From assembly GCA_038063755.1 (NCBI GenBank), contig JBBTUL010000011.1, forward strand, positions 71,040-135,039: DNA of 64,000 bases. The letters are read 5' to 3'. This stretch comes from Patescibacteria group bacterium (GTDB lineage Bacteria > Patescibacteriota > Minisyncoccia > UBA6257 > 2-01-FULL-56-20). Below, in pieces: positions 8,014-61,304 of this stretch (position 1 is its first letter; each line of letters opens with the position of its first letter). The notes beneath the pieces were generated by a model. That model did no database searches, was not told where the DNA came from, and worked only from the letters and a program-made list of their open reading frames with translations. The position numbers and the translations under genes are program-made.

Positions 8014-9381
8014 TTATTTGAGGAGGCGTTCAGTATAGCTCACAATGTCGCCCGCACCCATCATGATGACCATGATTCTGTGCTTTTTGCCTAAGATCGA
8101 ATCCGTGAATTTCAAAAGTGTTTTCCTTGAAAGGGAATGGGGATCTTCAAGGTAGAGAAGGGGGAGGTGTCTGTTCTTCTTCCCGATGGCGCGTGCCAGA
8201 TCGTTCGCGGTCATGACGCCCCTTTCCTCGTCGCGACCCTTTACCCGATAGGTCGGCAAGAGGATAAGCCCATCCGCTTCGTCGAACGCTCCGACAAACT
8301 CTTTGAATAACTTCTTTAACCGTTCGGCATGGTGTGGTTGGAACACCGGCAGGATAAGGTGGCCGCGGAATTTTTCTCGAAATGCACCGATGGTCGCTCG
8401 GATCTCGGTTGGATGGTGCGCGTAGTCGTCAAACACCGTAAATGCCATACCGCCGGAATGAAACGATCCGCGCCTCTCGTATCTTCTCCAGGCCCCGCGA
8501 TACCGTCCAAGCGAAGCAAGAATATCCCTTTTAGGAATTTCAAGAAGAGCGCCCAGTCTGTAAACCGCAAGCGCGTTTGACGCGTTGTGGATCCCAGGGA
8601 TTTGCAATGTGCGACGGATGGCTGGGGCGATACTGTCATCCATCGAATACCAGACAAGTTGTAGTTTATTTTTCCGCACCAACGTCTCGATCTTTCCCTT
8701 GAGCGAGAATAAGTACTCATTGTCGCGATTCAGGATAAGCGAACCGCCGACTTGCGTTTGCGCAAGGAAGCGCAAGAATGTCTTTTTAATGTCGGCAAGA
8801 TCGCGATAACAATCCAAGTGCTCGCGGTCGATATTCGTTACGATAGCGCAGTACGGCGCGTAATTTAAAAATGCTTTTTTGAACTCGTCGGCTTCAAGCA
8901 CCAGGTAATCTCCGTGGCCGTTTCGGAAGTTTGAGTTTCTAAATTCTTTGAGTTTCGTTCCCACGATAACAGTCGGATCAAGACCTACCGAAGTCAAAAG
9001 AAGCGCCGCAAGAGCCGTCGTGGTGCTTTTCCCATGAGCGCCGGAGACGGTAATTGTCTTGTACTCACGGGTAATCCTCCCCACCATTTCGGGGTAGGAG
9101 AGAACTTCTATTTTCCGCTTCCGAGCCTCAAAAAGCTCTTTATTTTCGGGTTTTATGGCATTCGAATATATGACAAGCCTCGCGGCGGGGGGAACCCCTC
9201 CAGAATGGCCAATTTTGAGCTTTACGCCCTCTTTTACCAAGGAATCGGTGAGTTCACTTCGGGTGGCGTCGGAGCCCGAAACAGCCCATTTTTGGGCCAA
9301 AAACCACCTGGCGAGGGAACTTACCCCGATACCGCCGATGCCTATAAAATGGACCGATTTTCTCGCCTGTCTTTTCGTCAT
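8014..9381 (-). CDS. murC: UDP-N-acetylmuramate--L-alanine ligase
   Basis: FIGIGGIGVSSLARW N-terminus, GTKLKEF, Mur ligase middle and C domains. Confidence 0.9.
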   Translation of the reverse strand: MTKRQARKSVHFIGIGGIGVSSLARWFLAQKWAVSGSDATRSELTDSLVKEGVKLKIGHSGGVPPAARLVIYSNAIKPENKELFEARKRKIEVLSYPEMVGRITREYKTITVSGAHGKSTTTALAALLLTSVGLDPTVIVGTKLKEFRNSNFRNGHGDYLVLEADEFKKAFLNYAPYCAIVTNIDREHLDCYRDLADIKKTFLRFLAQTQVGGSLILNRDNEYLFSLKGKIETLVRKNKLQLVWYSMDDSIAPAIRRTLQIPGIHNASNALAVYRLGALLEIPKRDILASLGRYRGAWRRYERRGSFHSGGMAFTVFDDYAHHPTEIRATIGAFREKFRGHLILPVFQPHHAERLKKLFKEFVGAFDEADGLILLPTYRVKGRDEERGVMTANDLARAIGKKNRHLPLLYLEDPHSLSRKTLLKFTDSILGKKHRIMVIMMGAGDIVSYTERLLK

Positions 9382-11150
9382 GCGATTTCGCTATTGTAGC
9401 AAGATTCACAGTATACAATCTCCGGTCGATCAGGAGCGTATGAGGTCTCGAATTCATTTGGACAGGAATTCGTACCGTGTGGATGTGCAGCTGTGTTTTG
9501 ATAGACACCGCCCTGCGAAGCCGCTCCCACACAGACACACTTTCGATGCCAAAGTTTAAGTGGATTTCTCTGCTTGAGACGCTCGTAGTGACGACAATTT
9601 GGACAAAGGCGAGGGAGCGCCAGTTTTATTTTCCGGTAAAAAGCGAGCTCTTCGGGAATTATCCGGAAGGCCGTAGTGCACTGATCGTTACAGTCTCCTC
9701 CATGGAGGCATCCGATCGTTTCTTTAAGAACTGACTCATCTATATCCTTGATTTGATCTGGAAGATTTTCGGGTTCTTTTGTGATTGTGTATGACTTGGC
9801 GTCGAGGTCTCGCCAGCGGTAGCCCCTTTCAATAGCATCTTTCTTGGTTAACGGGAAATATTCTTGCGAGAGCGCTTCGTTGTACGCGAAAGGGGAGAGC
9901 TCAGGAGGAAAGAACTCACCATATTTATATACACGCCCGCGTGCATCCACATACGGCATAGCATTCATCTGCTCGATGATCTTGGGAACAAGCGCTTCAT
10001 ATTCTTCCTTTGTATATTGCCTGTTCAGAATGCAATATTGTTTACTGCGTAAACCTATGCAGCCAAAAAGATTGCTGGAAGAATGACACCAGTGGCAGTA
10101 TCTCATCTCACGAGCCGCGTCGGAGTCAGTACAGAAGGCAGTTTTGGACGTGCTCCAGCCGGTCACAACAGATTCATAATTTAATTCCTTTCCGGAACTC
10201 CCATAAATATCGTAGCTGTCCTTCAGATTAAATGCCCTCCCGACGAATTTCACGTTTTCAACTTCATGGACACCAAAACCAGATGTAACATTTTTTGAAT
10301 TCCAAATATTGTCTCCGGTACAGTCGGATGCCTTCGTTTGGTTGGAGAATTTATGGAGCGAACCGACGGCTATTTTGCGATATTCTTCTTCCATCTGTCT
10401 GAGAGTTTCATAGCTTCCCAGATTAATTTTTCCGACCTGAGCTTCGTAATCGGTTTTGGTAAGTTGTTTGTTCCTGAAAACATAACTTTTATTTCGTAGA
10501 CCAGAGCTCATAAAGCAGTTTTTGCAGTTTGCGCAATCGAAAAGAAAGCTTGATTCAACACAACCATGAGAATTATGTAGAAAAGCACTTCTGTAGTTGC
10601 CGCTTCCATCTATATTCTCGTAGCAAAGCTCTGACTTTTGGAGGTACAGCACATCAAAGCAATCCTTTAGGTCGGTGATATTGCTCGAATACGCAACGTT
10701 TTCGCTATCGACCGCCGAATAAGCCAAACAAATATTTTTCGTATTCCTCACAAAGTTTGAGAACTCAGCGTTTTCGTTTTGTGAATATTGCACGAGCGCC
10801 ACTTGGGGAACCTTGCTTTCCAATTGAAAGAATTGATCGAGGAACGGCTTGTTTTGGTCGTATTCTTGTTGGTAGGTTAGCGGGTCCCACCCATCCGATA
10901 GCCAGCACGATTTACAATAGATAGGAAATTTCGCGTCGGGAAGATGCATCGAAACTATCTCCTTGGCGCATAGATCGCACTTTCGCTTGCAGAGAGATCT
11001 TTCGTTTCGCCAAGTTAAGCGGCGAATTAGGCGGCACTCCGGACACCAGGTCGGCGGGGGAACGTTGATCTTTCTGTAGAAATCAAAATCTTCGGGTTCG
11101 ATCGTGAACTCTTTATGGCAGTTTTGACAATTTCGAGCTTCTTGATTCAT
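9378..11150 (-). CDS. cysteine-rich zinc-ribbon-flanked ~590-aa family protein, paralog A
   Basis: N-terminus CQNCHKEFTIEPEDFDFYRKINVPPPTWCPECR..RR..RNER. Central FDCANCKNCFMSSGLRNKSY.F.NKQ..K..YE and YCHWCHSSSNLFGCIGLRSKQYCILNRQYTKEEYE modules. C-terminus AFRIIPEELAFYRKIKLALPRLCPNCRH ... PEIVYCESCYN. 4-nt overlaps with both neighbours. Confidence 0.8.
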   Translation of the reverse strand: MNQEARNCQNCHKEFTIEPEDFDFYRKINVPPPTWCPECRLIRRLTWRNERSLCKRKCDLCAKEIVSMHLPDAKFPIYCKSCWLSDGWDPLTYQQEYDQNKPFLDQFFQLESKVPQVALVQYSQNENAEFSNFVRNTKNICLAYSAVDSENVAYSSNITDLKDCFDVLYLQKSELCYENIDGSGNYRSAFLHNSHGCVESSFLFDCANCKNCFMSSGLRNKSYVFRNKQLTKTDYEAQVGKINLGSYETLRQMEEEYRKIAVGSLHKFSNQTKASDCTGDNIWNSKNVTSGFGVHEVENVKFVGRAFNLKDSYDIYGSSGKELNYESVVTGWSTSKTAFCTDSDAAREMRYCHWCHSSSNLFGCIGLRSKQYCILNRQYTKEEYEALVPKIIEQMNAMPYVDARGRVYKYGEFFPPELSPFAYNEALSQEYFPLTKKDAIERGYRWRDLDAKSYTITKEPENLPDQIKDIDESVLKETIGCLHGGDCNDQCTTAFRIIPEELAFYRKIKLALPRLCPNCRHYERLKQRNPLKLWHRKCVCVGAASQGGVYQNTAAHPHGTNSCPNEFETSYAPDRPEIVYCESCYNSEIA

Positions 11151-22492: not shown

Positions 22493-24427
22493 CTACTCTT
22501 CGTCGTGCGTTATCTCAGCTTTATGAAGTGATTCTGCTATTGCCTTTCTCAGGTCTGCAATGTTAACTCCGTCCTTTTTTCTTTCCGCTCTTTGTTTCTC
22601 TGGCACTGACCTTTCCGAAAGATCCTTGAGCGAAAGAGTTTTTTCGGTACTGCTTTGCTGCGATGCCCTTGCTTCTACTTCAATTCTTGGGACAAAAGAT
22701 CTTTTTCTCTGTTGAAACTGAAGCTCCGATCGCTCTGGGCGCTTCGGAAAGTCTTTATTCTGAATTTCCTGCGGAGCTTTTCGAGACACTGCCTCCTCGG
22801 GCTGCTCCGTCCTTTCCTCTGTCGGATGAAGAATCTTTGTTTTTTCTTCACCGCCTCCCTCGAACTCGATCCCGAGACTCGCAAGATCAGCAGAAAACTG
22901 TTTCTGATTAACGCTGACCTTCGGGGAGGAAGATCTCGATGCAGGCATAATTGTCCCCTCTTTTATCCCGGCGAGACATTCTCGGCAGTATACGGGCTTC
23001 CCGGGTATGGGCTCAAAAGGAACGGTTGTTTCTCTCCCGCAAGATGAGCAAATTGCCGAGAAAGACTCTCCGCTTCTCGGAGTGCTCGCTCGCGACATAA
23101 TTGTTTCTCCCTCTCCTCCCCTCGGAACCATTCCGGCCCATCGATTAATTTCGTCCTCAATGACTTCCCGGGGGCGAGCGTATCTTTCCCTTGACTGCTC
23201 AATAATTTCCTGCGCAGTCGATGCGTCCTCTACTCCTTTTATGGGCGGTAATGTTTTCGCGGAAAACGGCCTTGAGGCAACCCCGTCGCATAAAAGTTTC
23301 AAATAAATATGATAGTTCGGAAGGTTTACGATGTCTTGGATAGTAAACTCCGGCTCAAACTCGCTTTCGAGAAACTCCGCATCGGCAGCCCCGACACGAA
23401 AGATGATCATCGTTCCTGCGTTTCCAAAAATTGCGTCTCTTACTTTTGTAGAAACATCCGTAACAAGTTGTCCTATATATTGATGCGCCAGTATCAGATC
23501 AAGTCGATATTTTCTTGCTTCAGATAAAACACTCGCAAATGAATCCGTTGCGAAGTTTTGAAATTCATCGACGTAGAGATAGAAGTCGACGCGCTCGTCC
23601 TCCGGAATACGGACGCGCTCCATCGAGGCAAGTTGAATTTTCGTAATAAGCATCGCTCCCAAAAGCGCGGAGTTATCCTCCCCAATGCGCCCCTTGGAGA
23701 CATTTACCAAAAAAATCTTTCCTTCGTTCATAATGTTAAATATGTCCATCGTGCTTTTCGATTGTCCGACGACGTTTCTCACGATTGCGGTTGAAAGAAA
23801 TTGACCAACCTTGTTTTGAATAGGCGCTATGGCTTCGTTTCTGAACTTGTCTTGCCACGCCTCATACTCGTGAATCCAAAAAGCCTTTACCACTGGATCT
23901 TTAATGTTATTCACAATGGTCTGCCGAAATTCTTTATCGACCAAAATGCGAGTGATACCAAGGAGCGTTGAGCCGGGTGTGTCGAGAAGCGCAAGGATTG
24001 CGTTGTTTAAAATGTATTCCATTCTCGCCGACCAGACATTTGACCAAATTTTCGTAAAAATTCCCATAAGACCTGAAGCAACCAAATGCTTGTATTTCGG
24101 GTCTGGCAGTTCAAGCACATTAAAGCCAATGTGATAATCGATGTCAGCTGGATTGAAATATACGACATCCTTTACGCGCTCCTTCGGGATTTTCGAAAGA
24201 ACTCCCTCAATAAGCTCTCCGTGCGGGTCAACGACACACACGCCTTCGCCGTTTGCGATATCTTGAATAATAAGATTGCTTAAAAAAGCGGACTTTCCGG
24301 TACCGGTCTTTCCGATAACATACATGTGCTGCCTTCGATCGTTTCTTTTGATGCCAAAAATCCGATCGGCGTTACGAAAATCGGTTTTCGCAAAATATAC
24401 GACATCTCTGTCCGGTCTATCAATCAT
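22493..24427 (-). CDS. soluble VirD4/TraD/TraG-like (T4CP-like) P-loop ATPase with C-terminal zinc ribbon and a long charged tail (T4CP-like-1)
   Basis: Walker A HMYVIGKTGTGKS, Walker B FYLYVDEFQNF, and the AHQYIGQL coupling-protein motif. No N-terminal TM. C-terminal ribbon CSSCGRETTVPFEPIPGKPVYCREC, followed by a ~170-aa E/K/R/S-rich low-complexity tail. Confidence 0.75.
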   Translation of the reverse strand: MIDRPDRDVVYFAKTDFRNADRIFGIKRNDRRQHMYVIGKTGTGKSAFLSNLIIQDIANGEGVCVVDPHGELIEGVLSKIPKERVKDVVYFNPADIDYHIGFNVLELPDPKYKHLVASGLMGIFTKIWSNVWSARMEYILNNAILALLDTPGSTLLGITRILVDKEFRQTIVNNIKDPVVKAFWIHEYEAWQDKFRNEAIAPIQNKVGQFLSTAIVRNVVGQSKSTMDIFNIMNEGKIFLVNVSKGRIGEDNSALLGAMLITKIQLASMERVRIPEDERVDFYLYVDEFQNFATDSFASVLSEARKYRLDLILAHQYIGQLVTDVSTKVRDAIFGNAGTMIIFRVGAADAEFLESEFEPEFTIQDIVNLPNYHIYLKLLCDGVASRPFSAKTLPPIKGVEDASTAQEIIEQSRERYARPREVIEDEINRWAGMVPRGGEGETIMSRASTPRSGESFSAICSSCGRETTVPFEPIPGKPVYCRECLAGIKEGTIMPASRSSSPKVSVNQKQFSADLASLGIEFEGGGEEKTKILHPTEERTEQPEEAVSRKAPQEIQNKDFPKRPERSELQFQQRKRSFVPRIEVEARASQQSSTEKTLSLKDLSERSVPEKQRAERKKDGVNIADLRKAIAESLHKAEITHDEE

Positions 24428-24487: not shown

Positions 24488-26263
24488 CTATCGAGTTTCA
24501 GCCAAAAAACACGACTCACAGTAAACAATTGCCTCTTTCTCATTCGAAAATGTGGTCTCGAATGAGTTCTCACACCTCTTGGATCCGTGAGAATGAATTG
24601 TGTTATTTTTATACTTTCCCGACTCTCCTCCTTCGCACATACAAAATCCCTTCTGCCATCGGGGAGGGTTCCTCTTTGCTGTTCGCGCAGAATGCCGACA
24701 AGGAAAACAGCTTCTTGGAAGGGCAAGATTGAAGCGCTTGTAAAAACCAAGTTCTGCGGATGCAATTTGATAGGCTCGCTTGCAGGAAGCGCATCCGATA
24801 ACCTCTTTAAGAATTTCGTCGGATGTGTCGCTGATGTGGTCTGATAGCTCCTCAGCTCGAACCGTTATTTCAAAGTCGCGCAGATTCGGATCCTGCCACC
24901 CGAAACCCGTTTTTAACGCTTCTTCTTTCGCAAGTGGAAGAAGATCAAGCGCCATTGTTTCGTTGTATGCGTATGGGGAAAACTCCGGAGGAAAAAACTC
25001 GCCGTACCCGTAACTCTTCCCCCTGGCATCAACGTACGGCATCTCCTTCATGTGTTTTTTGAGTAGTGAAACCTTCTTCTGATACTCCTCTTTCGAATAC
25101 TGTTTATTAAAAATGCAATACTGCGCGCTTCTAAGGCCAATGCACGCGAAACAGTTCGAGGAAGAGTGACACTCGATACAATATTCAAGCTCGGTACAAC
25201 CAGGCCAGCATTCGATGCAAAATTTCAAGCGGTTTGATTCGTTGCCACAGGTAACGCATTCATATATAAGCTCGGTTGAATCACCCCAATTGGTGAAGTC
25301 GTATGATTCGCTTGTTCCCGCAAGAATGCTTTGGGAATACTTTACGTTCTCTACCCCTATTGCCTCATAGCAGTATTTTGCGTTTTTGGAATTATACACG
25401 TACTCACCAATTACATTTTCATTCTGGGACCCGTGAAAAAACTTCTCGGGAAACTGCTTGTCCATACTCATCATGCGTTCTTTCATCTTCCGAACTACTT
25501 CGTACGAACCGAGGTCAAACTTTTTGATTTCTCGCTCATATTCTTCCTTTGTATATGGCTTGTTGAAAATATAATATTTCTTATGCAGAAGATTCACGCA
25601 ACCAAAGCAGTCCGAACAATCGTCGCATCGTACGAGAAAGGCAGAGTTTTGACACCCTTCACAGTCGTAGGAGAAAAACGTTTTGTAACAACTTGCGACG
25701 AGAGAAACCTCGCTGCAAAGCTCCAGTTTTCCCGATTGGAAAAAATCCACTGAATCCTTCACATCCATAAAGGTAACGCCATAAAGCGAGTTTTCTCCAC
25801 GACCTCCATTGAAGCAAAGATAGCAATTTTTTAGGTCCCCGGACTGATCGCAATAATCGCTGTTTGAGAGTCTGAGGATAGACCGTGAAGCCCGAGGAAC
25901 TTTTTTGATAAACTCCCGGAATTGCGCAAAAAACGGTCTTGAAAGATCGCACTCTTCCCCAAAAGACAGGGGGTCCCATGAGTCAGACCACCACCGAGGA
26001 TGGTCGTAGACTTGAATCGGAGCTGACCTTGGAAAACTCGAAAATATTTCTTCTTTTGTAACGGCATCGACATTCCGAAATAATTGGTGGTCATTTCTGA
26101 AACACATCCTCCTCTGCATTCTGCACTCCGGACACCGCGTCGGTGGTGGAACATCCATCTTCTTGTAGAAATCGAAGTCTTCGGACTCAATAACAAAGTC
26201 CTTGCTGCAGTTTTGACAGACTTGTCCTGAGCTTGCCGAAGGGTTTTTGGTTTCGTGATTCAT
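24488..26263 (-). CDS. cysteine-rich zinc-ribbon-flanked family protein, paralog B
   Basis: CQNCSKDFVIESEDFDFYKKMDVPPPTRCPECR N-ribbon. The second N-ribbon Cys are lost (RNVDAVTKEEIFSSFPRS). Central YCIECHSSSNCFACIGLRSAQYCIFNKQYSKEEY. C-terminus AIVYCESCF. Confidence 0.8.
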   Translation of the reverse strand: MNHETKNPSASSGQVCQNCSKDFVIESEDFDFYKKMDVPPPTRCPECRMQRRMCFRNDHQLFRNVDAVTKEEIFSSFPRSAPIQVYDHPRWWSDSWDPLSFGEECDLSRPFFAQFREFIKKVPRASRSILRLSNSDYCDQSGDLKNCYLCFNGGRGENSLYGVTFMDVKDSVDFFQSGKLELCSEVSLVASCYKTFFSYDCEGCQNSAFLVRCDDCSDCFGCVNLLHKKYYIFNKPYTKEEYEREIKKFDLGSYEVVRKMKERMMSMDKQFPEKFFHGSQNENVIGEYVYNSKNAKYCYEAIGVENVKYSQSILAGTSESYDFTNWGDSTELIYECVTCGNESNRLKFCIECWPGCTELEYCIECHSSSNCFACIGLRSAQYCIFNKQYSKEEYQKKVSLLKKHMKEMPYVDARGKSYGYGEFFPPEFSPYAYNETMALDLLPLAKEEALKTGFGWQDPNLRDFEITVRAEELSDHISDTSDEILKEVIGCASCKRAYQIASAELGFYKRFNLALPRSCFPCRHSARTAKRNPPRWQKGFCMCEGGESGKYKNNTIHSHGSKRCENSFETTFSNEKEAIVYCESCFLAETR

Positions 26264-26290
26264 GAAGGACTATTTACTTTGGTCCAATCG

Positions 26291-28099
26291 TTACGCCGTC
26301 TCTGCCTGAAAACATCCTTCACAATAAACGATATCGGGAAGCGCCTTGTCATATGGAGACTCGAATGTATTCGTACAGCTTGATGACGATTCGTGGGCTT
26401 GATGCAGGGCGATGTTTTTATAGCCACCATCTAACGACACGTCCCCTCTACACTGACATTCTCGAGTATAGAGCTTTGCCGGAAGACGCTGTTTAATACG
26501 TTCGAAGTGGCGTGAATTGTAACAACGACGAGGGATTGGCAATCCGAACCTTTTATAGAATTCGAGTTCTTGTGGGATGATGCGAAAAACTCCCGTGCAG
26601 TTGTGCAGGATGGCCTCTTCGGAATCTTCATCCCAAGATCGGCATCGGATTGTTTGTCCGAGAAGGTCATCCGTGGCGTCCTCTATGGAATCCGGAACAT
26701 CTTGCCATCGCAGTGTCGCTTCGTGCTTTTTTCCCTCAGGTTTCTTCCATATCAGATGCTGTTCGGCAGCGGCATGTTCGGATAGTGGAAAGTTTTCTTG
26801 CGCGAGCGTGTGGTTATAGGGATAGGGAGAAAATTCCGCCGGGAAAAACTCGCCGTATGGGTACCGTAGCCCATTTGCGTCAACATACGGCATTGTATTC
26901 ATGTGCTCAATAACGCGTTCCCGGAGCGCGAAATACTCTTCCTTCGAATATTGCTTGTTCAAAATACAATACTCTCTCTTCTTAACTCCGGCACATCCGA
27001 AAAGATTTGAGGAATTACTACAATAGAGTGCGTATTCAAGATTCTTGTTTTCGGGCCAGCATTCCCAACAGAAGCGACAGTTATATATCCCCAAGCCACT
27101 TGCGACCGCTTCATAGACCAATTCGGCGTTATCTCCCCAGACGGTATAGTCGTAGCACTGCCTCGTGGGAGGCGTTAGTATGTACTGACAGTAACGACTG
27201 TCTTCAAGGCCAAGCGCAAGATAGCAATTTTCGGCATTTTTTGATTGATAGACATACGATCCCGAAGCATTTACGTTTTTGTTGTTTGCCGCATATTTAT
27301 TCGGAAACTTCAGCCAGAACTCGGCGCTTTTCTTCTTGAACTCTTCGATCTTTCCATAGGAGTTGAGAGCGAATTCCTTTACTCGTCTCTCGTATTCCTC
27401 CTTGGTGTAGGGTTCGTTGAAGATATGATATTTCTTGTTCTTTAAATTCACGCAACCGAAGCAGTCATGGCAACCAATACATTGTTTTGAGAACCACATA
27501 TCGTACGATCCGTTACAGCGCGTTGAAAAAAAGCACTTCGAACAGTCGGCGGAAAACGAAAGCTCGTAGCAGAATTCGCTACTATCCATATGTGAAAAAT
27601 CTATGCAGTTCTTTCCGTTATTAACCCCATTTCCGTACATGCAATCTTCGGCATAATTTCCGTTGAAAACGAGGTAGCAATTTTTAAACCCGGTATAATT
27701 GTTGGAATAGTCACTGTTTGTTCCATACACAACCGAAAGCGAGTAAATCGGCACCGCTTTCCAGAGGTCATAAAGCTGTGCAAGAAACGGCTTTGAAAAA
27801 TCGACCTCGCGCCCGAAAGACATCGGATCGATGGTGTCCCCGAAAAACAATTCATTCTCGACGATTTTTTGGCGGGAATCCGGAGGGAACATTGAAAATA
27901 TTTCCTTGCCCGAAACTTCGCTTTTTCGCTTATATAGGAAGCGCTCGTTTCTAAATGCCATCCTCCGCATCATCCTGCAGGCCGGACACCGCGTCGGTGG
28001 TGGAACATCCATCTTCTTGTAGAAATCGAAATCGACCGGCTCAAGAGCGAAATCCTGGTGACAACTCTCGCAGATGCGGTGTTCTATTGCGTCTGTCAC
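26291..28099 (-). CDS. cysteine-rich zinc-ribbon-flanked family protein, paralog C
   Basis: CESCHQDFALEPVDFDFYKKMDVPPPTRCPACR. Central CIGCHDCFGCVNLKNKKYHIFNEPYTKEEYE and FGCAGVKKREYCILNKQYSKEEY. C-terminus GVFRIIPQELEFYKRFGLPIPRRC ... PDIVYCEGCF. Sits in tandem with B. Confidence 0.8.
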   Translation of the reverse strand: MTDAIEHRICESCHQDFALEPVDFDFYKKMDVPPPTRCPACRMMRRMAFRNERFLYKRKSEVSGKEIFSMFPPDSRQKIVENELFFGDTIDPMSFGREVDFSKPFLAQLYDLWKAVPIYSLSVVYGTNSDYSNNYTGFKNCYLVFNGNYAEDCMYGNGVNNGKNCIDFSHMDSSEFCYELSFSADCSKCFFSTRCNGSYDMWFSKQCIGCHDCFGCVNLKNKKYHIFNEPYTKEEYERRVKEFALNSYGKIEEFKKKSAEFWLKFPNKYAANNKNVNASGSYVYQSKNAENCYLALGLEDSRYCQYILTPPTRQCYDYTVWGDNAELVYEAVASGLGIYNCRFCWECWPENKNLEYALYCSNSSNLFGCAGVKKREYCILNKQYSKEEYFALRERVIEHMNTMPYVDANGLRYPYGEFFPAEFSPYPYNHTLAQENFPLSEHAAAEQHLIWKKPEGKKHEATLRWQDVPDSIEDATDDLLGQTIRCRSWDEDSEEAILHNCTGVFRIIPQELEFYKRFGLPIPRRCYNSRHFERIKQRLPAKLYTRECQCRGDVSLDGGYKNIALHQAHESSSSCTNTFESPYDKALPDIVYCEGCFQAETA

Positions 28100-28102
28100 G
28101 CC

Positions 28103-28294
28103 CTATCTTGAAAGTTGTTTTTTGAAGAACGCAGATTGCACCTCTGGAGTTTTCCCACCAAGAATCCAAAATGAAAATTCACTCTTTACGCCTCTGAGCT
28201 CCTTAGCTGACGCAAATACCGGCAGAATAAGCGATAAAATAATAAGAATGACGGCAATGGTGACAATGGTTTTTAACGAGTTTCTCATGTCCAT
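28103..28294 (-). CDS. hypothetical small single-TM protein (63 aa)
   Basis: One TM helix (IVTIAVILIILSLILPVFA), wedged between murD and paralog C with 3-24 nt gaps. Confidence 0.4.
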   Translation of the reverse strand: MDMRNSLKTIVTIAVILIILSLILPVFASAKELRGVKSEFSFWILGGKTPEVQSAFFKKQLSR

Positions 28295-48860: not shown

Positions 48861-50600
48861 CTATGCGACTTCTGCGTTATAGCATTGCTCGCAGTATACG
48901 ATCTCGGGACGGTCGGGGGCGTAGGAGGTTTCGAATTCGCTTGGGCAGGGAGCGTTTTCGTGGTCGTGCCCTTTCTTGCACATACACCTACGACGCCAAA
49001 GGCGCAATGGTTTATGCAGGTCCATTCGCTCTCCTCTTCTACAGCCGGGGCACAGTCGCGGAATTGGTAAATCCATCTTTCGGTAAAAGCCGAACTCCTG
49101 TTGGGTGGTCTTAAAAGCGAGGGTGCAGTTATGGATGCATCCTTGGCGGTGCTCGCATTCTATAACTTCGCTCAGAATATCGTCGTTGGCCTCCTTGATC
49201 GTAGCCGGCAGATCGCTTGAGGTTTTTGTTGATTGGTACTCTCTTGGTTCCGGCTCGGCCCATCGACAGCCGAACGCCAACGCCTCGTCTTTATGCAGAG
49301 GAAAGTAAAACTGCGTCAGCGATTCGTTATACGCAAACGGGGAAAGTTCGACAGGAAAGAACTCGCCGTACGGGTACACCTGTCCGTTCAATCCAACGTA
49401 TGGATTGTTGCTCATACCCTCAACTATGCTCGCCCGAAGCTCTAAGTACTCGTCTTTGCCGTATTGCTTGTTTAATATGCAATATTGCTTTTTCCGCAGA
49501 CCTACACACCCGAAGAGATCTTGGCTAACACGACAGTAGTCACAATATTGGATTCTCGCACTACTCTCGAACGTGTTTAAAGAAAAATAAATATTGGAAT
49601 CGAGATATCCCACATTAACACCCTCGTATAACAGCGAACACTCCTTGTCCCCTACACCATACATGTCATAGGAATCCTTCGCGTGACTTGCCTGCGCGCA
49701 GTATTTGATATCTTCACAATCTGCGGAGTTGAAACTATGTTTTGCATTCTTGCAGTTAACGAGGTTATCGCCCGAGGAGCCAACGCACTTGATGATATTC
49801 GCATATTTATGAAACGCGGCTTCTTTCATGCGAACATATTCCATACGGAGTTCCCTCTGGGTAGAATAGTCGCTACTAATAGCTTCGAGCCGCTTCCGAT
49901 ACTCTTCTTCGGCAAGCTGTTGGTTACGAAACACAAATTTACCGTTGCGTAAATTGCTGCTCATAAAGCAGTCGGAAGAGTTGCGACAGTCATAAAGGTA
50001 TGAGCTATTCATGCAATCCTTGCAATCAGAAATGAAGACGCACTTCACGCAGCGTTCTGAATCCATAGCCTCGTAAACGCTCTCGGAATTCATAATCACG
50101 ATGGAATCAAGTGTTTCTCTACAGCTCCACGCCCCTTTGGAATACGACACTGTGTCTGAATTCAGCGTTGAGGGTGAAAGATACACGTTTTTAGAAAACC
50201 ACGTGAAATCAGAATAGGGCGAATTCTCGTTTTGATAAGCTTCCAGACTTGGCCTCGGCATGACATCCGAAAGCTCCTTCCACTGAGAGAAAAAAGTCTT
50301 GTTCGAATTGTATTCGAGGCCGTAATCCAATGGATCCCACTTATCAGACCACCAACACTCATTGCAATACACGGGGAATTTAACGCTTTTCGAATAATGA
50401 GAAATGCCCTGTATGCCGCATAACCCACACTGGAACTTATGCATATTGAACTCATTTCGGAAAAGCATTCTTCGCTTCATCCTACACTCCGGGCACCACG
50501 TCGGCGCCGGAACGTCTATCTTTTTGTAGAAATCGAAATCCTCGGATTCGATGGTGAACGCTTGATGACAACTTTGACAATTTTTTGTCTCTTGATTCAT
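48861..50600 (-). CDS. cysteine-rich zinc-ribbon-flanked family protein, paralog D
   Basis: MNQETKNCQSCHQAFTIESEDFDFYKKIDVPAPTWCPECR. Central YCDYCRVSQDLFGCVGLRKKQYCILNKQYGKDEY. C-terminus PEIVYCEQCYNAEVA. Start chosen to match the family N-terminus; the ORF is open to 50621. Confidence 0.8.
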   Translation of the reverse strand: MNQETKNCQSCHQAFTIESEDFDFYKKIDVPAPTWCPECRMKRRMLFRNEFNMHKFQCGLCGIQGISHYSKSVKFPVYCNECWWSDKWDPLDYGLEYNSNKTFFSQWKELSDVMPRPSLEAYQNENSPYSDFTWFSKNVYLSPSTLNSDTVSYSKGAWSCRETLDSIVIMNSESVYEAMDSERCVKCVFISDCKDCMNSSYLYDCRNSSDCFMSSNLRNGKFVFRNQQLAEEEYRKRLEAISSDYSTQRELRMEYVRMKEAAFHKYANIIKCVGSSGDNLVNCKNAKHSFNSADCEDIKYCAQASHAKDSYDMYGVGDKECSLLYEGVNVGYLDSNIYFSLNTFESSARIQYCDYCRVSQDLFGCVGLRKKQYCILNKQYGKDEYLELRASIVEGMSNNPYVGLNGQVYPYGEFFPVELSPFAYNESLTQFYFPLHKDEALAFGCRWAEPEPREYQSTKTSSDLPATIKEANDDILSEVIECEHRQGCIHNCTLAFKTTQQEFGFYRKMDLPIPRLCPGCRRGERMDLHKPLRLWRRRCMCKKGHDHENAPCPSEFETSYAPDRPEIVYCEQCYNAEVA

Positions 50601-50655
50601 GGTCGTGTTTGTCCCGCCCACAGGCGGGATCCTCGATTTTGTCTATTCGCTACGC

Positions 50656-50727
50656 TCATACAAAATCGGGACAGTTCTGGCAGACCCGCCCTGAGCTTGC
50701 CGAAGGGGTTTTTGTTTCGCTCGTCAT
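50656..50727 (-). pseudogene. decayed N-terminal remnant of a further Cys-rich family paralog
   Basis: The minus strand encodes MTSETKTPSASSGRVCQNCPDFV-stop. 17 of 23 residues match the paralog B N-terminus (MNHETKNPSASSGQVCQNCSKDFV). Lies in the 109-nt gap between paralogs E and D. Confidence 0.6.
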
Positions 50728-50730
50728 GGA

Positions 50731-52452
50731 TTATGCAACCTCTGCGTTATGGCAAGATTCACAGTATAGATTCTCTCCGGGAAGCGATGTTTCAAACGCG
50801 TTTCCGCATGGGCTGTCGCCATGCGCGTGAGAAACGCTGTTTTGATAACCGCCCGAGCCAATCGTTCCTCTGCAAGCACATTGGCCTTCGTGGAGGTAAT
50901 TTGGTCCGCGAGCTTGAAATCTCCTGGCATGTCGACAATCTGGACAAAGCCGGGGAAGCGGCACTGAAAGTTTTTTGTAAAACGCAAATTCATCGGGAAT
51001 AATTCGATAATTTTTCTTGCAATCGATGCAGGCAAAAATCTTTTCAACAAGCGATTGATCGGCATCGCCAATCGCATCAGGAATCTCCGCCCAGGAAATC
51101 GTTTCTTTTCCAAATGTGCCGCGCTCGAAATCCTCCCACTTAAAACCAAGCTCGAGCGCCTCTTCCTTTGAGAGCGGAAACTGTTCCATTGCTGCGGATT
51201 CGTTGTAGCCAAACGTGCTGACTGATGCGGGGAAGAATTCGCCGTAATTTCCCGCATCTTTCATAGACGCAACTATCTTCTCGCGCAGTGTTTGATACTC
51301 CTCTTTCGAATATTCGTGGTTAAGAATGCAGTAATCTTTTTTACGAACTCCAACCGATCCAAAACAGTTGTTCGCATTGAAGCAGTAGTAGCAGTATTCC
51401 GTAAACGAACACGTCCAGCACATGCGGCAGCAGATTTGATTCGAGACATCCATTCCGGCGTTCACCGTGTTATACATCATCTCAGCGTTGCGCCCCGTAG
51501 TATCGCAGTCCATACAATCCTTGGCGTTACGCCACACATGGACGTTATACTTACAATCCTCGGCCTCATAACAATGAAAGCAGGATTTGCAATTTTTTGC
51601 GTTTTTTATGTAGTTTCCGCTTGAATTTGGCGCTTGGACAATTTCTGCATACTTTCTCGGTTGGGTTTTCAAAAATTTCTCGAATTTTTCTCTGAACGCT
51701 TCAACGCCGGAATTCGTATCGAGTCGGAAATTCTGCAGCTCCTTTTCATATTCTTCTTTCGAATATGGCTTATTGAAAATGCAGTATTTGGAGTTTCTTA
51801 AATTCACACACCCAACGCAGTTCGACACACCTCGACAGTCAAACAGAAAGGCACTCTCGCGGCAATCATGACATCCTCTGCTCCAGGAAATGCCGTAGCA
51901 GCCATAACAGTCGTCGCTTTCGTACGAAAGCTCGGTTTGGTGTGAAAATGAAACGTCGACAAGATCACGACATTGCTGAATCCAATAACAATGCGTGCAA
52001 TTCTCGTTGTTTGAAGACTCCACGATCATGTAGCAATTCTTGCTGTCTGCGGAAATATTCGTGTATTCCGAATTCGTGCTACGAATGTATACGAGCGCTA
52101 CTTTCGGAACCGAATCCCATACCGCCTTGAACTGTTCCATGAACGGTCTCGATGGCGTGTATGCCCGGCCATAATCAAGTGGATTCCAATCGTCGGAGAA
52201 CCAGCAGTCATGACACCAGACGGTATACGGCTTCTCGGGACTATACATGGAGATCACCACTTTCTTGCATTTGTCGCACGCGCGTCGATAGAAACTCCGT
52301 TCGTTACGGAATGAAAGTCGGTGTCTCGCACGACAGAGAGGACAAAGCTTCGGCGCCAGAACGTCTATCTTTTTATAGAAATCAAAATCTTCCGGTTCGA
52401 TGAAAAAAGGCTTCTTGCATTGTGTGCAGGTTTTCGTCTCCGGCATTGTCAT
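50731..52452 (-). CDS. cysteine-rich zinc-ribbon-flanked family protein, paralog E
   Basis: CTQCKKPFFIEPEDFDFYKKIDVLAPKLCPLCR. Central FDCRGVSNCVGCVNLRNSKYCIFNKPYSKEEYE. C-terminus NYRIIPDEFAFYKKLSVPLPRLCPDCRH ... NLYCESCHNAEVA. Confidence 0.8.
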   Translation of the reverse strand: MTMPETKTCTQCKKPFFIEPEDFDFYKKIDVLAPKLCPLCRARHRLSFRNERSFYRRACDKCKKVVISMYSPEKPYTVWCHDCWFSDDWNPLDYGRAYTPSRPFMEQFKAVWDSVPKVALVYIRSTNSEYTNISADSKNCYMIVESSNNENCTHCYWIQQCRDLVDVSFSHQTELSYESDDCYGCYGISWSRGCHDCRESAFLFDCRGVSNCVGCVNLRNSKYCIFNKPYSKEEYEKELQNFRLDTNSGVEAFREKFEKFLKTQPRKYAEIVQAPNSSGNYIKNAKNCKSCFHCYEAEDCKYNVHVWRNAKDCMDCDTTGRNAEMMYNTVNAGMDVSNQICCRMCWTCSFTEYCYYCFNANNCFGSVGVRKKDYCILNHEYSKEEYQTLREKIVASMKDAGNYGEFFPASVSTFGYNESAAMEQFPLSKEEALELGFKWEDFERGTFGKETISWAEIPDAIGDADQSLVEKIFACIDCKKNYRIIPDEFAFYKKLSVPLPRLCPDCRHARRFQARGPNYLHEGQCACRGTIGSGGYQNSVSHAHGDSPCGNAFETSLPGENLYCESCHNAEVA

Positions 52453-57560: not shown

Positions 57561-59312
57561 CTATGCTACTTCTGCATTGTAGCAACCTTCACAATACACG
57601 ATCTCGGGGCGACCGGGGGCGTAGGAGGTTTTGAATTCTGCGAAGCAAGAAGTATTCCCGTGTGAGTGAGGGATGGTATTTTTGTACACGCCGCTTGTCG
57701 ATTGCGGACCACCACAGTCGCAACTTCGCTTCCATAACCTCGGAGGATTCACTCTTTTAAACCGCGCATAATAGCGACAATTCGGACATAAAACCGGAAG
57801 AGGAACACCAAACCTCCGATAAAGCTGAAGTTCTGCGGGAACGATTCGAAAGGCGGCTGTGCATTTTTCTCCGCACCCACCATCATGACTACAACCGATC
57901 ACCTCATTTACAATGTCATCCTGAACCTCGGTTATCAAGTCAGGAAGCTCTGCGGGCTTCTTCGTTATCGCGTAATTCTTTTTTTCATCATCCTTCCAGC
58001 GCTCTCCATGTCGCAACGCTTCGTCTTTTGAAACGGGAAACCAATCAAGGGCCGCGGATTCGTTGTACGCAAACGGACTAAGCTTGTTCGGAAAAAACTC
58101 GCCATATTCCCCCGTTCGTTTCATATGTTCAGCGATCTTCGCTCTCAATGTCTCAAACTCTTCCTTTGAATATTTTTTATTCAAAATCGCGTAGGAGGCA
58201 TGCTTCAGTCCCGCTGAACCAAACACGTTCGTGCACGAATGACAGTTATTTGAGTACTCCGCATCAACGCATTTCCAGCAAAATACCGTAAACTTATTTC
58301 CCCGAGAGTTATCGGGCGTAACAGATTCATAGCACAACTCCGGGTTTCCGGTGTAAATACAGTCGTACGAATCTTTGGCTCGATCATTTATGACAATGTA
58401 GGATGAATTCTCGATTGGCGAGAAACAGTAAAAGCACTGTTTTGCCGATTTTGCCTCAAGAAGAAAGAACCCCGAGGAGTTGGTTGTTTTGGGGGCGTGT
58501 GTGTACCTTCGCGGAAACTGCAGACTAAATTCACTAAACATTTTTTTGTTCGCTTCGATGCCCGCACGACTTCCGAGATTCAACTTCGCAAGCTCTTTCT
58601 CGTACTCGTCCTTAGCGTACTGTCTGTTAAGGATGCAATATCGCTTGTTTCGCAAACCGACACATAAAACACAGTCAGAGCATCCTCTAAGATCGAACCC
58701 GAACACGCAATTGTTTGAGTCAAAACAAAGTTCACAATATTTGCAGTTATAACACTTATCGCAGTTAATGCTTTCGTACATCAATTCGGAATTATTTACA
58801 TTCCATGCGTCCATAATGTCCTTCGCATGATTCACGATGTACATATAAAGGCCGTTTTCGACGTACCAACCACAAGCCCCAAGATAACAGTTTTTACTAA
58901 ATGCCCAATCGTAGGTATATTCGCAATTCACACTACCAACACCATCGTCGTTCATACTCGATATTGCCGGCACCTTATTCATGAGTTCCTGAAGTTGATC
59001 AAAGAATGGACGTGAAAAATCAAAATCACGCCCATATGAGGCCGGATCCCATCCGTCAGACCACCAGCACCTTACGCAATAGACCGGAAATTCTGTATCG
59101 GGTGGATACATTCCAATCATATCCTTCCTGCACAAATCACACTTGCGGCGATAAAACGTCCGCTCGTTGCGAAATCTTAGCCGACGTTTCAGGCGACACT
59201 CCGGGCACCAGGTCGGATACGGAACGTCTATCTTTTTATAGAAATCGAAATCTTCGGATTCGATCGTGAAATCCTTATGGCAGTTTTGACAAACCTTGAT
59301 TTCACTACTCAT
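57561..59312 (-). CDS. cysteine-rich zinc-ribbon-flanked family protein, paralog F
   Basis: CQNCHKDFTIESEDFDFYKKIDVPYPTWCPECR, then RKCDLCRK...VYCVRCW. Central FGFDLRGCSDCVLCVGLRNKRYCILNRQYAKDEYE. C-terminus AAFRIVPAELQLYRRFGVPLPVLCPNCRY ... PEIVYCEGCYNAEVA. Confidence 0.8.
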   Translation of the reverse strand: MSSEIKVCQNCHKDFTIESEDFDFYKKIDVPYPTWCPECRLKRRLRFRNERTFYRRKCDLCRKDMIGMYPPDTEFPVYCVRCWWSDGWDPASYGRDFDFSRPFFDQLQELMNKVPAISSMNDDGVGSVNCEYTYDWAFSKNCYLGACGWYVENGLYMYIVNHAKDIMDAWNVNNSELMYESINCDKCYNCKYCELCFDSNNCVFGFDLRGCSDCVLCVGLRNKRYCILNRQYAKDEYEKELAKLNLGSRAGIEANKKMFSEFSLQFPRRYTHAPKTTNSSGFFLLEAKSAKQCFYCFSPIENSSYIVINDRAKDSYDCIYTGNPELCYESVTPDNSRGNKFTVFCWKCVDAEYSNNCHSCTNVFGSAGLKHASYAILNKKYSKEEFETLRAKIAEHMKRTGEYGEFFPNKLSPFAYNESAALDWFPVSKDEALRHGERWKDDEKKNYAITKKPAELPDLITEVQDDIVNEVIGCSHDGGCGEKCTAAFRIVPAELQLYRRFGVPLPVLCPNCRYYARFKRVNPPRLWKRSCDCGGPQSTSGVYKNTIPHSHGNTSCFAEFKTSYAPGRPEIVYCEGCYNAEVA

Positions 59313-59352: not shown

Positions 59353-60801
59353 TCAAATAAGCGGCTCCGGAGGAAGATTCGACTGTATCGCCGAATGACC
59401 CTTCCCTTCGATAATTGCCTTTTCCTGCGCACTCCGAATAATAGTCGACTCTTCCTCTGCAATAAGTCGTCGCGCGTCATCAGCCGGAATAGAATATTTT
59501 TCTCGCGACTGAGCAAGGATTTCGGGCTTAAACGAACGATGTGGAGGATCAAGAACGGCCAGCGTTTCGGCAGAGAAAGGATCGTACGACTCTCCATCAA
59601 TCGTCATTTTAATATAAAATTCCCGCATCCCAAGATTGATCATGTCTTTTACGTCGAAGATCGGAGCCATTTCTGGTTTAAGCGTCACGGCATCATCCCC
59701 TCCCACGCGAAAGATCACAATACTCCCTACGTTTCCCAAAACCGCTGCTTGAACGCGCGGCAGGAGCTGTCCCATATATTGGTGCGCAACGGTAAGTGCT
59801 AAGCCGTACTTTCTGGCCTCCGAGAGAATATTCTCGAATGTCTCAGTAACCAAGTTTTGAAACTCGTCGACATAAAGATAAAAATCGTGACGCTCGGATT
59901 CGGGCAAGGCAGCGCGAGCCATACCAGCCTGCTTGATCTTGGTAATGAACATCGAACCGAAAAAACTTGAGTTCTCTTCTCCAAGCCTCCCTTTAGAAAG
60001 ATTGATCAAGATAATCTTCTTTTGCTGAATAAGCTCCTCAAGTTTTATTTTGTTCCCTTTTTGTCCGAAAATATTTCGCAGTGTTGGATCTGAAAGAAAC
60101 TGTCCGAGCTTGTTTACGAGCGGAATAATCGCGTCGGTATCGAACTTTTCGGACCAATCCGCAAATTCGATCGCCCAGAAACGCTTTACCATGTCGTCTT
60201 CGATGTATTCGACGACCTTCTGGCGATAGTTCCGGTCAGTAAGCATAGAAATCATACCTCGCATGGTGGCGTGCGGGTAATCAAGGAGCGCTAAAACCGT
60301 GAATCGAAAAACGTGCTCAAGACGCGGCGTCCAGTTCGCGCCAAACTGTTTTTCCATTACTTCAATCAGGCCCTGAGTGAGCTGATGCTTAAACAATGGA
60401 TCAACATTTGCAAGCGGATTGAAAGATGCCGGAAACGCGTGATCTGATGGGTCTATAACGACTACATCCCCTATCCGATTCTCGGGAATGAAATCAAGCG
60501 TCGCTTCGACAACGTCTCCGTGCGGATCAATGAGGCAAAGACCGTATCCTTGCGCAATGTCTTGGCGCATCATAAGTTCAAGCAGCTTCGTCTTTCCAAC
60601 GCCGCTTTTTCCAATTATGTACATATGACGTCGCCGATCTTTCCGTTTGATGCCAAAAATGAAACGTTTCTCTTCAAGCGCCGCAACGTAATTCGTTCTT
60701 CCGATAAAAGAAACTTCGCTCGTGTCTACTTTGCCGTATATCGGCAAATCCGTCGGGGGCGGAGCATATTTGATTATCTGTATTCGATTCGCCTTTGGCA
60801 T
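59353..60801 (-). CDS. soluble VirD4/TraD/TraG-like (T4CP-like) P-loop ATPase (T4CP-like-2)
   Basis: HMYIIGKSGVGKT Walker A, FYLYVDEFQNL Walker B, AHQYMGQLL. The N-terminal region is alignable with T4CP-like-1 (FGIKR.DRR.HMY.IGK). ATGA start/stop overlap with the upstream gene. Confidence 0.75.
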   Translation of the reverse strand: MPKANRIQIIKYAPPPTDLPIYGKVDTSEVSFIGRTNYVAALEEKRFIFGIKRKDRRRHMYIIGKSGVGKTKLLELMMRQDIAQGYGLCLIDPHGDVVEATLDFIPENRIGDVVVIDPSDHAFPASFNPLANVDPLFKHQLTQGLIEVMEKQFGANWTPRLEHVFRFTVLALLDYPHATMRGMISMLTDRNYRQKVVEYIEDDMVKRFWAIEFADWSEKFDTDAIIPLVNKLGQFLSDPTLRNIFGQKGNKIKLEELIQQKKIILINLSKGRLGEENSSFFGSMFITKIKQAGMARAALPESERHDFYLYVDEFQNLVTETFENILSEARKYGLALTVAHQYMGQLLPRVQAAVLGNVGSIVIFRVGGDDAVTLKPEMAPIFDVKDMINLGMREFYIKMTIDGESYDPFSAETLAVLDPPHRSFKPEILAQSREKYSIPADDARRLIAEEESTIIRSAQEKAIIEGKGHSAIQSNLPPEPLI

Positions 60802-61304
60802 CAGATTGCTTCGATTTCCTTCAAAAATGCTTCGTAATCGCCAATTGTCTCCTTGGCATCATCTTGAGAAACAGCAAACCCTGGACTGTGGACAAGATCA
60901 TTGCGAACGCGATGAGCTCGCCAAATACGCGGAAACGACTTCAGTTCATCTGAGGTAAGTCGGGCAAGTCTATCCGCGAAATGTTCTCCAGGAAGGCCGA
61001 GCTGTTTTAAAATGTCGTCTACAAGTCCATCGGCATCGATTATCGCAAATTTTACAGCATCGAGAGATCCGCCTTCGAGGCGCTTCGTGATTTCACTCCA
61101 ACGCTCTGCGATAACGGCGCTTCTCAATGTTCTCTTTCTCTTGTGCTTGGCCGGGTTAAAAACAAAATTTGGTCTGAACTTTAAGAGGCCGGAAATTGAG
61201 AAAACCAAAATCACGACAAGCCCAACATCAAAGACAATAAAGACGATTTTTAAAAAAATAAAGAATCCGCTAAATCCCTCGAAAAAACTTTGAAGTCCTT
61301 GCAT
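60801..61304 (-). CDS. TM-anchored protein with a HEPN-like Rx4-6H motif
   Basis: N-terminal TM helices (FFIFLKIVFIVFDVGLVVILVFSISGLL). C-terminal helical domain with RAHRVRNDLVHSPGF (R-N-x3-H). Confidence 0.5.
   Translation of the reverse strand: MQGLQSFFEGFSGFFIFLKIVFIVFDVGLVVILVFSISGLLKFRPNFVFNPAKHKRKRTLRSAVIAERWSEITKRLEGGSLDAVKFAIIDADGLVDDILKQLGLPGEHFADRLARLTSDELKSFPRIWRAHRVRNDLVHSPGFAVSQDDAKETIGDYEAFLKEIEAI

Follow-up and report, generated by a model that had tools for sequence, protein, structure and literature searches.

A multicopy family of putative zinc-binding solenoid proteins in Patescibacteria and its gene link to VirD4-like ATPases

Introduction

What do six diverged copies of one long, cysteine-rich protein do in a single bacterium? 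The question is raised by a 64,000-nucleotide stretch of DNA from a Patescibacteria group bacterium (assembly GCA_038063755.1, contig JBBTUL010000011.1, positions 71,040 to 135,039 of the forward strand), which we analyzed at its full length and refer to as the window. It contains six full-length paralogues, designated A to F, of a protein family without a name. Much of bacterial diversity belongs to the Patescibacteria, whose genomes are tiny, whose cells mostly need a host and whose proteome is in large part unexplained.

Here we describe the architecture of this family and its gene link to VirD4/TraD-like ATPases, which is strong but lineage-specific. The family is thereby a concrete candidate partner for the VirD4-like ATPases of the phylum, of which there are about two per genome. 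In the passages of a 2025 survey considered here, these ATPases were not placed in a type IV secretion system (T4SS), and their function was left open (PMC12102498). If the link is functional, it offers a route to understanding how Patescibacteria cells move DNA or proteins. Even without it, the family presents a fold with no solved relative, in which duplicated zinc modules surround a duplicated solenoid and an invariant GEFFP/YNE block.

Results

A preliminary description, made from the sequence alone, had reported six minus-strand paralogues of about 10.6 kb in total, together with one remnant. The list of open reading frames (ORFs) and their translations reproduced all of them. The copies are A (9378 to 11150, 590 aa, 32 Cys), B (24488 to 26263, 591 aa, 37 Cys), C (26291 to 28099, 602 aa, GTG start, 32 Cys), D (48861 to 50600, 579 aa, 35 Cys, with an alternative GTG start at 50621), E (50731 to 52452, 573 aa, 43 Cys) and F (57561 to 59312, 583 aa, 39 Cys). 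All six lie on the minus strand, and B and C stand in tandem, 27 nt apart. Lengths range from 573 to 602 aa and cysteine contents from 32 to 43; the earlier count of about 35 for copy A was too high. Pairwise identity is 35.6–46.2%, and the six-way alignment contains 85 invariant columns. The N-terminal and other shared motifs quoted previously are present in this alignment, with one correction: the GEFFP block occurs in all copies, but the preceding MPYVDARG stretch is absent from E, which lacks this insertion, and from F.

Each protein begins with Zn1, in which a treble-clef-like finger (CxxC..CPxCR) precedes an Arg-rich helix, and continues with Zn2, a CxxC-x17-CxxC finger. A duplicated beta-solenoid, a GEFFP..S..YNE..W block and a C-terminal copy of the zinc module (Zn3 plus Zn4) follow. 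In copy F, which was taken for the structure model and provides the residue numbering used below, these parts correspond to 59157-59312 (Zn1), 59028-59156 (Zn2), 58581-58913 and 58134-58460 (solenoid repeats 1 and 2), 57903-58133 (GEFFP block), 57738-57902 (Zn3) and 57564-57737 (Zn4), all on the minus strand. The same parts of A lie at 10995-11150, 10866-10994, 10425-10757 and 9978-10304, 9720-9977, 9555-9719 and 9381-9554 on the same strand. The N- and C-terminal segments are homologous (blastp E 1e-7 to 5e-15), and hidden Markov models of Zn1 and Zn3 cross-match in all six copies, which bears out the proposal that the C-terminus mirrors the N-terminus. The repeated modules of about 40 aa noticed earlier in the center are real as well, and turned out to be the ends of a larger internal duplication (F 134-244 versus 285-393; hhalign 99.8%, E 9e-30). 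With a zinc module, two repeats, a conserved block and a second zinc module in succession, the protein is pseudo-symmetric.

An AlphaFold2 model of F (87 sequences) reached a predicted local distance difference test score (pLDDT) of 88.1 and a predicted template modelling score of 0.90, with a weaker region at residues 120-200 (pLDDT 62-72). In this model, helix 37-45 begins at the second Cys pair of Zn1. Together with the conservation of both CxxC pairs, this is the treble-clef arrangement. Of the double zinc ribbons originally assigned to both ends, the mirrored zinc modules therefore stand, but the N-terminal finger is treble-clef-like and not a classical ribbon. As stated before, none of the six copies contains a segment resembling a transmembrane (TM) helix. 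The first CxxC begins at residues 8-16, leaving little space for a signal peptide.

To distinguish potential metal ligands from other cysteines, conservation was computed over 184 near-full-length members. Conservation is highest in Zn1 (C8, C11, C36, C39; 98–100%), Zn3 (C474, C484, C509, C512; 93–100%) and Zn4 (C531, C556, C574, C577; 100%), and lower in two accessory sets (C533, H549 and H551, about 70%; H476 and C480, about 46%). Within Zn2, C58 is conserved in 83% of the members and C61, C79 and C82 in about 58%. The spacing of this finger (C58-x2-C61-x17-C79-x2-C82, with ..P(V/I)YCxxC) is exact in A, D, E and F, while all four of its cysteines are gone in B (replaced by D/T/D/R) and C (S/S/E/L); in C, one Zn3 cysteine is also replaced by Ser. 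The loss in the tandem pair had been recognized, but it is not peculiar to B and C, since about 40% of the members lack Zn2, a dispensable finger.

The central cysteines, including a run with a period of three at positions 181-202, swap freely with Ser and at some positions with Leu, Ile or Ala. This indicates small buried core residues rather than obligate metal ligands. The label "cysteine-rich" is thus correct for the count but overstates the metal content: plausibly, about half of the cysteines are metal ligands, and the proteins probably bind several zinc ions. Outside the cysteines, the most conserved feature is G404-E-F-F-P408..S412..Y416-N-E418..W439, with G404, P408, Y416 and N417 at 95–99%, which makes the block a candidate functional site. 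Conserved arginines (R40, R44, R48, R513, R517) occur in the helices that follow the second CxxC of Zn1 and Zn3.

These features could also suggest a metallo- or redox enzyme, in which CxxC motifs bind Fe-S clusters or redox-active metals and the GEFFP/YNE block, conserved at 95–99% and containing the polar residues E405, N417 and E418, forms the active site. A CxxCxxC-x8-C string at F 211-226, whose last position alternates between Cys and His, is the single ferredoxin-like candidate. However, C217 is replaced by Ser in 15% of the members and C226 by His, Tyr or Val in 47%, Tyr and Val together accounting for 25%, and central cysteines in general give way to Ser, Leu, Ile or Val in 15–60%. 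The CxxCxxCxxxCP pattern with invariant cysteines that characterizes 4Fe-4S ferredoxins was not found, and Pfam gave no Fer4 or other ferredoxin, radical-SAM or hexapeptide match. No similarity to enzyme families was detected, and the CxxC-x17-CxxC domains characterized to date bind zinc (PMC12704099). We consider an enzymatic role highly improbable.

The statement that the proteins belong to no named family was upheld. None of the six copies scores above the cut-off of a Pfam or NCBIfam model, the PDB sequence search gave no match, and no fold match spans the protein; the profile comparison suggested earlier thus found no characterized full-length family in these three resources. Searches of the literature with the family, DUF8128 and zinc-finger names returned no description of it. 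Neither the GEFFP block nor the overall architecture has a known counterpart, and we rate the family as new in kind, with a function to be read from context only.

A word-indexed search found 4,428 relatives. The named matches are nearly all "hypothetical proteins" of Patescibacteria, as expected from the proposed origin of the DNA in this group (also called CPR, for Candidate Phyla Radiation), and none has a Pfam domain; two named relatives bear other phylum labels and are probably mis-binned. An exhaustive profile search yielded 5,126 representatives of 50%-identity clusters, of which 2,242 scored at E <= 1e-30. The family is seemingly confined to Patescibacteria. When one genome per species was scanned, at least 560 loci were found, and 80 were kept for neighborhood work. 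These are of the Paceibacteria/Parcubacteria type and include, among others, Nomura-, Lipton-, Jorgensen-, Wolfe-, Giovannoni-, Staskawicz- and Sungbacteria. All 189 family ORFs in the 80 loci are co-oriented with the respective seed copy, at least two copies occur in 50 loci, and the biggest array holds eight copies in 17.7 kb. The family is costly to carry: its 10,572 nt make up 16% of the window, it accounts for about 30% of the DNA fetched around the 80 loci, and up to eight copies are packed into 18 kb.

Two ATPase genes accompany the copies in the window. A 644-aa soluble VirD4/TraD-like ATPase is encoded at 22493 to 24427 on the minus strand (Pfam TrwB_AAD_bind, DUF87, TraG-D_C and zf_Tbcl_2), and B lies 60 nt upstream of this gene. 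The ATPase carries a C-terminal CxxC-x17-CxxC finger (residues 454-486); this tail passes the TIGR04272 model (58.3 bits, cut-off 36) and is homologous to Zn2 of the family (hhalign 96%, E 4.5e-9). The second ATPase, a soluble VirD4/TraD-like protein of 482 aa (59353 to 60801, minus strand), is encoded 40 nt upstream of F; it is a paralogue of the first and lacks the zinc tail. Both are remote relatives of the TraD/VirD4 coupling proteins and TrwB.

To see whether this arrangement recurs, ORFs in the 80 genome loci were clustered without bias. The ATPase was the commonest neighbor (25 loci); the next families were housekeeping genes, with at most 10. It lies within the 8-kb flank in 23 of the 80 loci, on the same strand in 22 of these 23, and within 300 bp in 14. 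Given about two such ATPases per genome (PMC12102498) and chromosomes of about 0.8 Mb, about 3 of 80 loci would be expected to have one by chance (binomial P ~1e-14, an optimistic value because the loci are related by descent). In the reciprocal test, 80 metagenome loci were seeded on the ATPase and those of at least 8 kb were scored. Where the ATPase shares at least 50% identity with that of the window, 15 of 22 loci contain the family; where it is more distant, 1 of 33 does. Gene order varied (ATPase-family, family-ATPase, ATPase-family-family-ATPase), which argues against plain inherited synteny.

The preliminary description had proposed searching Patescibacteria genomes for copy number and gene neighborhoods. 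The search revealed arrays of up to eight copies and the ATPase as a neighbor; this adjacency, which the preliminary description did not contain, is the most informative context of the family. Across 2,918 Patescibacteria genomes, the survey counted 5,713 VirD4-like type IV coupling proteins (T4CPs), only 148 of them near virB4, and, in the passages considered, left exaptation open (PMC12102498). In the passages searched, no partner of these VirD4-like genes and no zinc is mentioned, and the only "cysteine" belongs to the VirB1 peptidase domain. Relative to this literature, the link between family and ATPase appears to be new.

The adjacency would also be explained if the proteins were translocated cargo, that is, signal-less solenoid proteins recognized through their terminal modules by the VirD4-like ATPase and exported through the Patescibacteria T4SS or another channel, either onto the cell surface or into host cells, as effectors or adhesins. 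Multicopy, co-oriented arrays of divergent paralogues fit this explanation, as does a beta-solenoid fold, which is typical of secreted fibers, adhesins and Cys-laddered insect antifreeze proteins. The conserved C-terminal module of about 120 aa may be reminiscent of the VirD4-binding domains of T4SS effectors. Moreover, Paceibacteria often have virB4 T4SS genes, in systems described, in the passages considered, as lacking relaxases (PMC12102498). On the other hand, passage through a T4CP or T4SS would require the unfolding of a solenoid and of three to five tightly folded zinc sites, the C-terminus is a structured zinc site ending in ..YCExCYNAEVA rather than a flexible or charged tail, and no T4SS channel genes lie beside the arrays. 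The paralogues are ancient and have conserved orthologues, unlike effector repertoires with their fast turnover, and copy A is embedded between an HD gene and a MurC-like gene, apparently in translational coupling with them (see below). Overall, we judge export as cargo to be unlikely. A more specific version, in which the family comprises the missing clients of the orphan VirD4-like ATPases and a lineage-specific pathway delivers them, alone or with nucleic acid, to the surface or the host, seems quite unlikely to us; if it were true, the family would sit at the molecular interface of the episymbiotic lifestyle.

Upstream of the 482-aa ATPase, all on the minus strand, follow a 167-aa protein (60801 to 61304), which has a hydrophobic segment near its N-terminus (residues 6-45) and a conserved position between DUF8128 and the ATPase, and a 454-aa DUF8128 protein (PF26449; 61322 to 62686) with an N-terminal TM helix. 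A single phage profile, phrog_5156 (824 positions, function undescribed), spans both DUF8128 (78-305) and the ATPases (388-817). This implies fused versions in phages and points to the pair as a coupling protein in two pieces, of which the DUF8128 protein is, judging from these profiles, probably the membrane half. In several metagenome loci, ATPase ORFs of 750-1,170 aa were noticed that may be DUF8128-ATPase fusions. The 167-aa membrane protein holds an R-N-D-L-V-H string, which fits the HEPN-like Rx4H pattern; no profile backs HEPN, and Pfam gave only DUF4559 (E 0.04). A 346-aa protein with Sigma70_r4 and HARE-HTH domains (62771 to 63811, minus strand) is recurrent directly upstream of DUF8128 (9 of 80 loci), mostly after SecDF.

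Phage relatives of the ATPase and DUF8128 also bring a conflict or defense system into consideration, in which an FtsK/HerA-type ATPase with membrane partners would serve a diversified, sensor-like solenoid array that detects invading DNA or phage. Divergent paralogue arrays are common in immunity loci, the ATPases weakly match the PADLOC mad8 and HerA models (E 1e-12 to 1e-13), and the R-x4-H string, if verified, would fit as well. The family itself has no PADLOC match, its lone match in PHROGs is marginal (phrog_15341, E 0.003), and among 2.9 million viral contigs we found one marginal fragment only, a near absence on which a phage origin was rejected as well. Its core-gene neighborhoods and conserved orthologues are unlike patchy defense islands, and no nuclease or other effector domain was detected. 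A defense function appears very unlikely to us.

How old are the paralogues? Each one in the window has a closer relative in another genome (48–64%) than within the window (at most 46%), indicating that the paralogues are old and individually conserved and did not arise in a recent burst. This suggests stable, sub-functionalized proteins. Recent expansion or gene conversion was rejected on the same grounds and because DNA similarity between copies is limited to short conserved blocks. Copy F is 100% identical to the NCBI protein AAB495_03055 from a metagenome-assembled genome (MAG) of Patescibacteria, and the same DNA was found in Hainich groundwater assemblies.

The remnant is a 23-codon ORF on the minus strand (50659 to 50727) between E and D. 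This N-terminal fragment, MTSETKTPSASSGRVCQNCPDFV*, matches the opening 24 aa of B at 75% identity and does not resemble the adjoining D or E. The peptide (..TKTPSASSGRVCQNC..) has the unusual N-terminal insertion of B (..TKNPSASSGQVCQNC..), although B lies 24 kb away, which may reflect a former B-like copy, or gene conversion, at the D/E locus. For the B/C pair (26100-28100), public assemblies conflict: an ENA contig fuses the first 24 or so codons of C to the remainder of B in one 585-aa gene, and the NCBI assembly GCA_964357965.1 is interrupted between C and B, leaving them on two contigs. Either an assembly has collapsed here, or a recombinant haplotype is real. In four other loci, family genes are split into two or three adjacent ORFs (L076:4384-5695, L068:498-2336, L016:847-2849, L081:3419-5546); these may be decaying copies or frameshift errors in MAGs. 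A diversity-generating retroelement, comprising a reverse transcriptase (RVT_1) and bAvd, lies past the end of the window (L001:194-1567, about window positions 67746-69119), about 9 kb upstream of F. The family was rejected as its target, because the family showed only paralogue similarity within locus L001 and took part in no template/variable repeat pair there.

The other neighbors are mainly core genes. Between 8014 and 29713, family copies and the ATPase gene lie among division and cell-wall (dcw) genes, in the order MurD, a 63-aa TM ORF, C, B, ATPase, further on FtsW and MurG, then HD, A and the MurC-like gene. The 63-aa ORF (28103-28294, minus strand) has a hydrophobic N-terminal half and no Pfam match; both public assemblies annotate it as a gene. 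The start and stop of A overlap the HD and the Mur-ligase (MurC-like) genes by 4 nt on each side, which suggests translational coupling. In another locus (L041), two family genes lie between FtsW and MurG.

Such surroundings raise the question of whether the family consists of housekeeping nucleic-acid-binding or scaffold proteins, acting on DNA, RNA or the cell-division machinery, that are unrelated to the ATPase and adjacent to it through inherited synteny. Indeed, the majority of the loci have no ATPase nearby, and the further neighbors are core genes (FtsW, MurG, MraY, Mur ligases, ScpAB, DnaK, GluRS, SecDF, rpoBC). A overlaps the HD and MurC genes, C follows MurD, and the Arg-rich helices after the second CxxC of Zn1 and Zn3 would suit nucleic-acid binding. 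Nevertheless, the ATPase neighbors the family about three times as often as any other gene family does (25 versus 10 loci), its position relative to the family genes varies, and it comes in two types. The dcw genes, found in 12 of the 80 loci, stem mainly from one syntenic group of six loci, so that the link to division and cell wall is weak. That the family and the ATPase tail share a finger type would have to be a coincidence. Overall, a housekeeping role unrelated to the ATPase seems unlikely to us.

Discussion

We tentatively favor the reading that the family members are cytoplasmic partners or adaptors of the VirD4-like ATPase, although we hold it with less than even confidence. Six anciently diverged, soluble cytoplasmic proteins would then be partners of a membrane-anchored translocase that appears to consist of separate pieces here, with DUF8128 as the membrane part beside a small membrane protein and a soluble ATPase. 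The terminal zinc modules, of the same finger type as the C-terminal tail of the ATPase, would form the constant part, docking on the ATPase complex and/or holding nucleic acid. The duplicated solenoid would provide a paralogue-specific binding surface, resulting in a set of substrate-recruiting adaptors that differ in specificity. The proposed mechanism leaves the substrate (DNA or protein) and the direction of translocation unspecified.

Several points weigh against the adaptor reading, besides the relatedness of the loci behind the P value. About 70% of the family loci have no ATPase within 8 kb, and in the window A, D and E are without one in their surroundings. The family is missing around ATPase homologues of less than 50% identity, which shows that other lineages use the ATPase in the absence of the family. 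It would also be unusual for about two ATPases to be served by six to eight or more adaptors. Zn2-less copies were expected to pair with tail-bearing ATPases, but the trend was not significant (7 of 9 versus 8 of 16, P = 0.23). Finally, we infer the physical interaction from gene context, and nucleic-acid binding by the fingers from the conserved arginines alone.

How does the family compare with known systems? Its core resembles the general architecture of Cys-laddered and other beta-solenoids, such as insect antifreeze proteins (1ezg, 1m8n), curli CsgA (8c50), phi29 gp12 (3gq7) and the left-handed beta-helix acyltransferases, with small Cys/Ser residues at regular core positions. It is only an analogue of these. 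The family shows neither the hexapeptide profile and close structural match of left-handed beta-helix proteins nor the 12-/15-residue coils, Thr-x-Thr faces, disulfide ladders and secretion of insect antifreeze proteins.

The zinc modules have closer counterparts. The Pfam family zf_Tbcl (PF13451) comprises small proteins or tails of undescribed function. Its pattern CxxC..F.[IF]...[ED]..FY.K....P..C..CR..R(R/K) fits Zn1, of which Zn3 is the internal homologue, but the present proteins, of 580 aa, carry the domain twice, once at each end. The scores of B, C, D and F (15.9-20.9 bits) stay below the gathering threshold of 24 bits, A and E have no match, and 20 of 58 family members match at E <= 0.01 (best 7.5e-5), which points to remote similarity rather than formal membership. 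The second counterpart is the CxxC-x17-CxxC domain (TIGR04272 cxxc_cxxc_Mbark, PF23477 zf_Tbcl_2), likewise of undescribed function, and small Methanosarcina mazei proteins with this domain bind zinc as determined by inductively coupled plasma mass spectrometry (PMC12704099). Zn2 has the identical spacing but scores below both thresholds: NCBIfam gave no match at E <= 1, and PF23477 matched weakly in 4 of the 58 members.

With regard to context, the family can be compared with the clients of T4CPs, which include relaxosome accessory proteins such as TraM and T4SS effectors with conserved VirD4-binding C-terminal domains. The family resembles no known client in sequence or fold, and no relaxase, oriT or T4SS channel lies nearby. 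Like these clients, however, its genes stand beside that of a VirD4/TraD-like ATPase, and it combines a conserved terminal module with divergent paralogues. The ATPases in turn resemble the orphan VirD4-like T4CPs of Patescibacteria, which, in the passages of the survey considered here, number about two per genome and rarely lie near virB4 (PMC12102498): by domain content, both proteins of the window look like members of that population.

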